Below, in pieces: positions 53,094-54,826 of a stretch of DNA of 64,000 nucleotides; position 1 is the stretch's first letter, and each line of letters opens with the position of its first letter. The stretch comes from Dictyostelium discoideum (lineage: Eukaryota), in NCBI GenBank assembly GCA_000004695.1, contig CM000152.2, forward strand, positions 832,001-896,000, written 5' to 3'. A model generated the notes under the pieces. That model was not told the origin of the DNA, did no database searches, and saw only the letters and a list, made by a program, of their open reading frames with translations. Position numbers and translations under genes: made by a program.

Positions 53094-54641
53094 ATGACAT
53101 CAAATCAACCAATTGATTTTAGTTTTAATAGTAACTCAAACATTCTTGGACCTGATATCTCAGTTGTTAATAGTGAAAATAATAATAGTAATAATAATAA
53201 TGCCAACAACAATAAAGACTCCAATAACATAATAGATATTCAAGAGACGGAAGACAATGAATCATATGTTAATATTGAAAGTTTAAGTATTAATACTCAA
53301 TCACCACAACCACCAGAACAACAACAATATGAACAATATGAACAACAAGAACAACAACAACAACAACAACAACAACAACAACAACAACAACAACAACAAC
53401 AACAACAACAACAACAATATGAACAACAATATCAAAATGAAGTAGATGATATAGATAATGATAAATTACCTTTGTTAAGTAATGATGAAATTGAAAGCAA
53501 AAAAGCAAAAGTAGAACCAATAAGGATAACAAATTATAACTTTTTAGAAGTATTAAAACCAGAATTAGTTAATTATATATTTTTAAAGGTTGGAGCTTTA
53601 GATATGACATCATTGATCGGAGTTAATAAGCAATGCTATAGAATCGGTATGAATGAAAAGCTATGGTTATATTTTGTAGAGAATGATTTTAGAGTGGACA
53701 TTCACGAGATACATCAATTGATTAGATTGAATGGTGGTGTACGTTCATTGTATGCAAATCTTTATTTTAAACAAAAGAATAGTATTCCAAAACAGTCATC
53801 GCCAAATCCATTGATCAAATATTTCCTTAAACCAATTTCAAAGTTACCAAGTTTATTCACTCGTAAAGAGTATAAAACCTTAATGTATGGTTTAGATAGT
53901 ACCGGTAAAACTACAATGCTCTACAAGTTTGCGCGTGGTGAAAATGTTAGAACCACTCATACAAATGGTTATAATGTTGAAGTGGTCGAATATAAATCTT
54001 GTGATTTTATTTGTTGGGATGTTGGTTATGAAGATTCTTCATTATCTCCTCAAATTTTATCACCAACAAATAGTAATAATAATTTAAATAATAATAATAA
54101 TAATAATATAAATAATAATAATAATAATAATAATAATAATAATAATAATAATAATAATAATAATAATAATAATAATAATAATAATAATAATAATAATAAT
54201 AATAATAATAATAATAATAATAATAATAATAATAATAATAATAATAATAATAATAATAATAATAATAATAATAATAATAATAGTAATAATAATAATAATA
54301 ATAATAGTAATAATAGTAGTAGGGTATCATCGCCGCAACATCAAAAACCGCCTGTTTGGCAACATTATATTCAAGATACTCAAGCAATTATTTTTATTAT
54401 AGATGCAACAGATAGTCAACGTTTAGTACGTCAAGCTAAAGAAGAGTTTTGGAAAATGGTAACAGATAAAAATGTACAAAAGATTGTAAATAACTTTAAA
54501 CAACCAAATCAAGATTCTTGCAAGGTTAAAGTTTTAATTTATGCAAATAAATATGATCAAACAAATCCTATGACAACTTTAGAAATTACTCAAGCATTAT
54601 CATTATTTAATTTACCTGATCATATAGTTTGGCATGTTCAA
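53094..54641 (+). CDS. Atypical Arf-family small GTPase with N-terminal F-box-like domain, poly-Gln tract and a ~90-residue poly-Asn insertion, exon 1/2
   Basis: ATG at 53094. An F-box-like segment (LEVLKPELVNYIFLKVGALDMTSLIGVNKQCYRIGMNEKLWLYF) is followed by an Arf G-domain. It has the P-loop GLDSTGKTT and an NKYD G4 motif, but the G3 box reads WDVGYE rather than WDVGGQ. The GTATGT donor is at 54642 in phase 0. Confidence 0.7.
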
Positions 54642-54748
54642 GTATGTAATTTATTATTATTATTGTTATTATTAGATGGGGATCCACTAATTATTGAATT
54701 GGTATACTAATTTTTTTTTTTTTTTTTTTTTTTTAAATTTAAAAAAAG

Positions 54749-54826
54749 GGTTGCTCGGCTATATCAAAAGATGGTGATGGATTATATGAAGGATTGGATT
54801 GGTTAAGTTCACAATTTGATTCATAA
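54749..54826 (+). CDS. Atypical Arf-family GTPase, exon 2/2
   Basis: Acceptor aaaaaaag|ggttgc. It encodes GCSAISKDGDGLYEGLDWLSSQFDS*, which is the Arf G5 (CSA) motif and the conserved C-terminal helix. Confidence 0.7.
   Translation, partial: GCSAISKDGDGLYEGLDWLSSQFDS

Follow-up and report, generated by a model that had tools for sequence, protein, structure and literature searches.

The subject of this analysis is DDB_G0278443 (DdiArlX1, XP_642368.1), a gene of Dictyostelium discoideum that lies on the plus strand at positions 53094-54826 of a 64,000-nucleotide stretch of genomic DNA (assembly GCA_000004695.1, contig CM000152.2, positions 832,001 to 896,000 of the forward strand; hereafter "the window", to which all coordinates below refer) and encodes a protein of 541 amino acids in two exons. 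Judged from sequence comparison, the gene is protein-coding, conserved and intact and has evidently been held under purifying selection, with orthologues in other sampled dictyostelid species. We put at about an even chance the overall picture that its product joins a non-canonical Arf-like module, able to bind nucleotide, to a divergent adaptor motif of the Skp1-Cul1-F-box (SCF) ubiquitin ligases. What is new here is firmer statistical support for the F-box homology of the N-terminal domain, together with the demonstration that the degenerate GTPase motif DxG[YF]E is ancestral and that a long poly-Asn insert is species-specific.

Databases and the supplements of two papers already record the gene, its protein sequence and its F-box-like plus ARF composition. 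In Boland et al. 2022 (PMC9485057, Fig. S3), DDB_G0278443 is one of 83 predicted F-box sequences; its substrate-receptor entry reads "ARF" and its class is "b" only, that is, predicted by BLASTp and without an F-box annotation in UniProt. Vargová et al. 2021 (PMC8358228) give DdiArlX1 as a lineage-specific member of the ARF family, "unannotated" and unassignable to an ancestral ARF paralogue, with no extra domain noted. In a table of the same paper, ARF proteins with an F-box or F-box-like domain are given for Physarum, for Mastigamoeba and for one further species at least, and the authors describe how ARF domains have repeatedly been recruited into ubiquitin circuits via F-box, BTB and TRIM23. 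In other words, the architecture that the first-pass annotation of this DNA did not recognise is already a recognised one, and no member of it has been functionally characterised. A literature search of main texts did not find DDB_G0278443.

The spliced protein of the window is identical to the published DdiArlX1 / XP_642368.1 (Vargová et al. 2021, PMC8358228, supplementary files), and contains the F-box-like sequence that Boland et al. 2022 (PMC9485057, Fig. S3) give for DDB_G0278443. An exact-sequence look-up in a 15-billion-sequence collection did not find this D. discoideum protein, though RefSeq has it according to the literature. The two-exon structure and the coordinates read from the DNA by the first-pass annotation are borne out. 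A 538-codon open reading frame (ORF) starts with the ATG at 53094, and the GT..AG intron at 54642-54748 follows codon 516 in phase 0; this is the sole junction that gives an in-frame product ending in GCSA...GLYEGLDWLSSQFDS, an ending that matches all orthologues. The product across the junction, ...WHVQ/GCSAISKDGDGLYEGLDWLSSQFDS (the slash marks the splice point), agrees almost residue for residue with the C-termini of eight of eight orthologues and also with the published protein.

Eight orthologues were found by homology search, and include those of D. purpureum, Tieghemostelium lacteum, Cavenderia fasciculata, Polysphondylium violaceum and Heterostelium album; over the conserved region they are 65-84% identical to DdiArlX1. 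In the search with the full-length query, which carries both poly-Q and poly-N, low-complexity words saturated the candidate list, and 15 significant matches were obtained from 8000 candidates. For Dictyostelium queries, low-complexity masking is advisable.

That the C-terminal part of the protein is an Arf-family G domain, as had been proposed, is far beyond chance: Pfam Arf (PF00025) matches it at 131.8 bits (E=2.4e-38; cut-off 22.3 bits), with the insert splitting the match into two stretches, and the domain is 41% identical to that of DdiArf1 (D. discoideum Arf1). The short motifs quoted in the earlier annotation (GLDSTGKTT, WDVGYE, NKYD, CSA and GLYEGLDWL, as well as LEVLKPELVNYIFLKV of the N-terminal domain) all lie where it placed them. 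G1, the switch I Thr, G4 (NKYD) and G5 (CSA) are intact and invariant across nine dictyostelid sequences, and the C-terminal GLYEGLDWL helix is intact in DdiArlX1. G3 is degenerate: at the place of WDxGGQ the protein has WDVGYE, with Gly70 of Arf1 (the DxxG glycine) replaced by Tyr and Gln71 by Glu (Glu313), so the first-pass annotation was right that the second Gly and the catalytic Gln are both gone. The orthologues have DIG[YF]E in seven of eight cases and DIGYN in the remaining one, and none has GGQ. Because the change is kept in eight orthologues from other dictyostelid species, the degenerate G3 is, on this alignment, ancestral to the sampled dictyostelids and under selection, and no splicing artefact. 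Since the orthologues all lack GGQ, no alternative exon structure can restore it.

In Ras/Arf G domains, the backbone of the DxxG glycine senses the gamma-phosphate of the nucleotide, and Ras Q61E is reported to hydrolyse GTP faster than the wild type, so that a Glu at the Gln position need not abolish hydrolysis. The Gly-to-Tyr change and the insert in switch II are stronger arguments against canonical switching than the Glu at the Gln position. By the sequence criterion for pseudoGTPases (the Stiegler and Boggon classes, as given in PMC12722892), G3 is degenerate whereas G1, G4 and G5 are intact, and this combination suggests nucleotide binding without canonical hydrolysis; the "GTPase-dead, nucleotide-locked" state predicted by the first-pass annotation is hypothetical. 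The other departure from Arf proteins concerns the amphipathic helix that begins at Gly2 in Arf. A helix-like segment is kept in DdiArlX1, where it is internal, behind approximately 230 residues: the C-terminal half of the linker between the N-terminal domain and the G domain (YFLKP...LFTRKEYK) aligns with residues 1-18 of DdiArf1 (MGLAFGKLFSRFFGKKDM), and in the DdiArlX1 family this segment has two invariant Pro residues. Because the helix is internal, N-myristoylation is impossible and the classical Arf myristoyl switch is unavailable. In Supplementary file 8 of Vargová et al., DdiArlX1 has "no" in the first column and no myristoylation predictions.

The G domain is interrupted by a long insert. 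An (AAT)82 array at 54069-54315 (93% matches by Tandem Repeats Finder, TRF) encodes most of a 105-residue insert that is placed between Glu313, the equivalent of Q71, and Pro419-Pro420 of PPVW, where Pro420 is the equivalent of P76. It is situated inside switch II, and not immediately after it as first described, and its Asn residues number 77 instead of the roughly 90 first given. At this position eight of eight orthologues have just 4-6 residues, the length of the DKIR loop of Arf1; because all of them do, the insert is specific to D. discoideum. Trinucleotide-repeat expansions are common in the D. discoideum genome, and the poly-Asn tract is best read as a recent expansion of this kind that is probably tolerated as a disordered loop. 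The tolerance of 105 residues in switch II is indirect evidence that switch II performs no precise conformational transition in DdiArlX1. About 100 disordered residues inside switch II of a highly constrained G domain amount to a natural experiment, and suggest a non-canonical use of switch II in this family.

Conservation in the family is distributed unevenly. The most conserved segments are the P-loop-alpha1 block and the switch I/interswitch/G3 region (majority fraction 0.93-0.96, with 0.96 for switch I/interswitch/G3), and the last 29 residues (513-541) reach 0.93, with 21 of 29 columns invariant among the nine dictyostelid sequences. Because conservation peaks in these segments, it points to a switch-side surface that is probably in functional use. 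Elsewhere the G domain varies in length. The loop between alpha3 and beta5 (54492-54524, residues 467-477) is variable and family-specific, with a 14-residue gap in DdiArf1 at this place (VNNFKQPNQDSCKV); it is a hot spot of low-complexity expansion in four of the orthologues (P0005-P0008), with up to about 40 extra residues in P0008. In the H. album protein, about 50 additional residues rich in Asn and Ser follow NKxD. Because the inserts in the alpha3-beta5 loop and after NKxD vary by species, different dictyostelids have expanded different surface loops of the same G domain.

The second element of the picture, the N-terminal domain, is the more difficult one. Upstream of it lies the (CAA)n poly-Q tract that had been reported in front of the G domain (53306-53429; TRF period 3, 41 copies), which encodes 22 consecutive Gln. 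From about residue 148 the protein is abruptly conserved, with the pattern NFLE..P.E.VNYIFL.VGA....L..V.....K.GM.E.LW, and forms a helical domain of about 115 residues, of which the first 45-50 are a highly divergent F-box; LEVLKPELVNYIFLKV... is located within the DNA of this segment (53535-53678). In a comparison by hhalign, the family alignment matched a profile of 43 Dictyostelium F-boxes with a probability of 88.7% (P=2.5e-6, score 26.8, template columns 2-42 of 44). The reference set consisted of the 43 sequences annotated as F-boxes in UniProt, transcribed from Fig. S3 of Boland et al., with the query gene excluded. In 200 column shuffles of the query, scores were 8.0±1.7 with a maximum of 14.9, so that none of the 200 came close to the real score (z about 11); the reversed alignment scored 7.0, and the window sequence alone gave P=3.8e-4. 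The bona fide F-box of the Physarum polycephalum protein PpoArlX5 can be aligned in register with the N-domain as well, including the post-F-box YFKQK motif (E=5e-4), the RSLYANLYFKQK segment of the dictyostelid protein aligning with the WKQFYYESYFKQK segment of PpoArlX5. No variation occurs at the hydrophobic core positions of H1-H3 or in the terminal LW. Where helix 1 starts, the picture is mixed: the Leu-Pro motif has the canonical form ALPQEI in orthologues of the P. violaceum type, Pro is present in three others, and elsewhere the motif is shifted or missing. We conclude that the segment is homologous to F-boxes and, to judge from these alignments, highly diverged. The similarity is detectable by profile-profile comparison only: the F-box of the first-pass annotation stands as a homology of this kind, and failed as a Pfam match.

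The architecture has close counterparts in other organisms. PpoArlX5 (an F-box with a divergent ARF; Vargová et al. 2021, Suppl. Table 1) and an environmental protein, P0013, are built in the same order as DdiArlX1: the F-box is N-terminal and is followed by a short aromatic "YFKQK/WKQL" segment, a linker resembling the Arf N-helix and an Arf G domain. In all three, G3 is without GGQ (WDVGYE in DdiArlX1, HDVEDFE in PpoArlX5 and LDFPDLE in P0013), which fits a binding role for the Arf module in this architecture. The full length of PpoArlX5 is collinear with DdiArlX1, scoring about 56 bits against it and about 37 bits against DdiArf1. There are differences as well: the F-boxes of PpoArlX5 and P0013 pass Pfam (E 1e-13 to 1e-7) whereas the dictyostelid F-box does not, and NKxD is lost in PpoArlX5 but kept in DdiArlX1. 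The identity of the two proteins to DdiArlX1, only about 21-33%, is compatible with either a common origin or independent fusion. P0013 itself is a 466-residue protein from a 1645-nucleotide metagenome/metatranscriptome contig of the Joint Genome Institute (JGI), with Pfam-significant F-box/F-box-like and Arf matches and with poly-Asn tracts; its G domain is nearer to Arf1 (48%) than to DdiArlX1 (33%). Its sequence suggests that F-box-Arf fusions with a broken G3 occur outside catalogued genomes.

More distant parallels are found among known ubiquitin ligases and GTPases. In TRIM23 (ARD1; a RING/B-box/coiled-coil E3 ligase with a C-terminal ARF), as in DdiArlX1, an E3-ligase-associated module lies N-terminal to an Arf-family G domain, and TRIM23 is among the best non-dictyostelid sequence matches of the DdiArlX1 G domain (35% identity). 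The ARF domain of TRIM23 has a canonical G3 and is an active GTPase. TRIM23 has a RING and is itself a ligase, whereas DdiArlX1 would at most be an SCF adaptor acting via Skp1. Vargová et al. (PMC8358228) present TRIM23 as the model case of an ARF domain in a ubiquitin circuit. RhoBTB (Dictyostelium RacA), a Rho-type pseudo-GTPase with a Cul3-binding BTB, likewise joins a catalytically impaired GTPase-like domain to a cullin-RING adaptor motif, and RhoBTB1/2 are classed as pseudoGTPases (PMC12722892). It differs from DdiArlX1 in family (Rho versus Arf), in adaptor (BTB/Cul3 versus F-box/Skp1/Cul1) and in domain order, which is opposite; it also belongs to class I, without nucleotide binding, whereas DdiArlX1 keeps G1, G4 and G5. 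Finally, ARL10, ARL13A/B, ARL15 and ARL16 are members of the Arf family that lack the catalytic Gln, like DdiArlX1, and are discussed as atypical or pseudo-GTPases (PMC12722892). They are single-domain or differently extended proteins, whereas DdiArlX1 is not assigned to an ancestral ARF paralogue and also lacks the DxxG Gly.

From these comparisons we infer how the protein may work. The G domain would still bind guanine nucleotide, as the kept G1, G4 and G5 suggest, and would not be a conventional membrane-anchored Arf switch cycled by GTPase-activating proteins (GAPs) and guanine-nucleotide exchange factors (GEFs), but an atypical or pseudo-GTPase in the sense of PMC12722892. It may serve as the protein-interaction module, either substrate receptor or regulatory, of an F-box protein, and would bind partners through the switch I/interswitch face, which is extremely conserved. 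Should the F-box still bind Skp1, Arf-type partner recognition would be linked to SCF ubiquitin ligation, as in TRIM23 and RhoBTB. Under the same condition, DdiArlX1 would offer a tractable case, in a genetic model organism, of a cullin-RING ligase that uses a small-GTPase-like domain for substrate recognition or for regulation; it would stand alongside TRIM23 and RhoBTB, and would add to the view that many Arf-like proteins are pseudo-GTPases and not switches. A bolder version, which we regard as a long shot, is that the Arf-like domain is a nucleotide-loaded, permanently "on-like" mimic of Arf, whose invariant switch I/interswitch face captures Arf effectors, GAPs or GEFs for ubiquitination by SCF (Skp1/Cul1). 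In that event, the protein would be an F-box substrate receptor with a small-GTPase pseudoenzyme as its recognition module, and would exert direct degradative control of membrane-traffic regulators in dictyostelids.

Several observations weigh against a working SCF adaptor, and they are at the same time the case for its most serious competitor, namely that the F-box-like segment has lost Skp1 binding and survives as a relic or as a helical domain peculiar to this family, and that the protein is a stand-alone atypical Arl-type pseudo-GTPase or scaffold with no role in ubiquitin ligation, its N-domain mediating other contacts such as intramolecular regulation or dimerisation. No Pfam F-box match rises above threshold in the full protein, in the 120-residue N-domain or in any of the eight orthologues. 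When a 52-residue segment is excised, PF00646 is its only Pfam match, at 12.6 bits (E=0.14), below the cut-off of 20.5 bits; an artificial family consensus reaches 16.4 bits (E=0.008), whereas the positive controls PpoArlX5 (E=1.6e-13) and P0013 pass. A hidden Markov model (HMM) built from the 43 Dictyostelium F-boxes gives at most 6 bits on the dictyostelid family, compared with 42 bits on PpoArlX5. Among PDB sequences, the HMMER profile of the 120-residue N-domain had GID2, an F-box protein, as its sole match, and its E of about 0.2 is not significant; when the profile covered the F-box only, GID2 came at E of about 2, tied with an unrelated protein. In an exhaustive search of 1.84 billion representative proteins, the N-domain profile recovered the dictyostelid orthologues and two spurious repeat proteins, and no F-box proteins. 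Structure searches yielded no clear answer, and an AlphaFold2 (AF2) model covering the whole conserved region of the D. purpureum orthologue is unreliable (predicted local distance difference test score, pLDDT, 50.7). Leu-Pro is shifted by one residue in D. discoideum (LKPE), and Pro is missing in D. purpureum (LKQE), T. lacteum (FSLD) and P0008; given that several orthologues have a displaced motif or none, binding to Skp1 should not be taken for granted. DDB_G0278443 also went undetected in all four Skp1 co-immunoprecipitation data sets of Boland et al. 2022 (PMC9485057), an absence that counts against Skp1 binding without deciding the matter and that, as those authors note, may reflect low or stage-specific expression. 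Set against the loss of Skp1 binding are the profile-profile match over nearly the whole F-box profile, far beyond its shuffles, the invariant core of H1-H3 with the terminal LW, and the collinearity with Physarum and environmental F-box-Arf proteins whose F-boxes pass Pfam. We consider a relic quite possible, though not probable.

A different objection to the picture of a divergent adaptor with a non-canonical Arf-like module is that the G domain may be an active, cycling GTPase in which Glu313 is catalytic, DxGYE altering only the kinetics or the GAP requirement, so that the protein would be a regulated switch. All nucleotide-binding motifs except G3 are invariant across the dictyostelid orthologues, and the faster hydrolysis mentioned above for Ras Q61E would favour such a switch. 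Functional GTPases tolerate a change at the Gln position: Rap has Thr there (PMC2265111), and several ARLs are without the Gln (PMC12722892). We nevertheless think this unlikely, in view of the bulky Tyr or Phe that replaces the DxxG Gly (in the form DxG[YF]) in every orthologue and of the disordered insert in the middle of switch II, which is hard to square with a precise switch II transition or with the docking of GAPs and GEFs. An artefact of annotation, be it a pseudogene in decay or an intronic AAT array that, once spliced out, would leave a normal Arf, seems to us scarcely conceivable. The array is 100% A+T, like Dictyostelium introns, but the GT..AG pairs that span it all break the reading frame, and no in-frame GT-AG intron able to excise it was found among them. 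The orthologues leave nothing to restore, the published gene model retains the tract, and the 541-codon frame is intact in a genome of 23% G+C and conserved, as described above, in eight orthologues. The splicing out of the array, or alternative splicing that restores GGQ, was on these grounds rejected, and with it the exon structure carrying DVGGQ against which the first-pass annotation had set its proposal.

The features of the gene are collected in the following table. The window as a whole has a base composition of 23% G+C, with long A/T homopolymers and with the coding repeats (CAA)n and (AAT)n.

Table. Features of DDB_G0278443, in window coordinates
Feature	Position	Strand	Evidence or remark
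Exon 1, codons 1-516	53094..54641	+	ORF list and splicing; protein equals published DdiArlX1
Low-complexity N-terminus, residues 1-142	53094..53519	+	Non-conserved; mean majority fraction 0.33, 1 of 142 columns invariant
Divergent F-box-like motif, residues 148-195: YNFLEVLKPELVNYIFLKVGALDMTSLIGVNKQCYRIGMNEKLWLYFV	53535..53678	+	Profile-profile match; PF00646 sub-threshold; listed in Boland 2022 Fig. S3
Conserved helical post-F-box segment, residues 196-232, motif RSLYANLYFKQK	53679..53789	+	Kept in all orthologues; AF2 model helical, pLDDT ~80
Linker, residues 233-261, with stretch aligning with the Arf N-terminal amphipathic helix (SPNPLIKYFLKPISKLPSLFTRKEYK; NPLIKYFLKPISKLPSLFTRKEYK)	53790..53876	+	11 of 29 columns invariant
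Arf G domain, first half: P-loop, switch I with conserved Thr, interswitch, degenerate G3	53877..54032	+	Pfam Arf; most conserved part, majority fraction 0.93-0.96
P-loop (G1) GLDSTGKTT	53889-53915	+	
Switch I with conserved Thr (T290; ...RTTHTNGYNVE)	53946-53972	+	
G3 WDVGYE	54015-54032	+	
D. discoideum-specific insert in switch II, 105 residues, 77 Asn, longest run 57	54033..54347	+	Absent in 8 of 8 orthologues
Arf G domain, second half in exon 1: switch II helix PPVWQHY, beta4, alpha3, variable loop (residues 467-477), G4	54348..54641	+	
G4 NKYD	54546-54557	+	
Intron, 107 nt, GTATGT...AAAAAG, phase 0	54642..54748	+	GT..AG, 16% GC
Exon 2, codons 517-541 and TAA (54824-54826): G5 CSA (54752-54760), C-terminal Arf helix GLYEGLDWL	54749..54826	+	

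Around the gene, an A-rich run (A70, 85% matches) is located at 53000-53069, just 5' of the ATG. The upstream divergent ORF (51670-52257, minus strand) encodes 196 amino acids rich in Asn, Ser and Thr, with a hydrophobic N-terminal segment and no Pfam match, and shares with the Arf-like gene an extremely A/T-rich intergenic region of about 840 nucleotides. Farther away are a CCHC zinc-knuckle ORF (44066-44932, plus strand), a Cdc48/p97-like double-AAA ATPase (45851-48508, minus strand), a dual-specificity phosphatase (58641-59747, minus strand) and a leucine-rich repeat (LRR) protein (60248-61525, minus strand); these four look like unremarkable neighbours that bear no evident functional relation to the Arf-like gene. 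The downstream gene (55014-58497, plus strand) starts about 190 nucleotides past the stop codon and is a glycosylphosphatidylinositol (GPI) ethanolamine-phosphate transferase of the PIG-O/PIG-G type, its first ORF carrying the Phosphodiest domain and its second the PIGO_PIGG membrane region, the two probably joined across an intron near 55962-56115.

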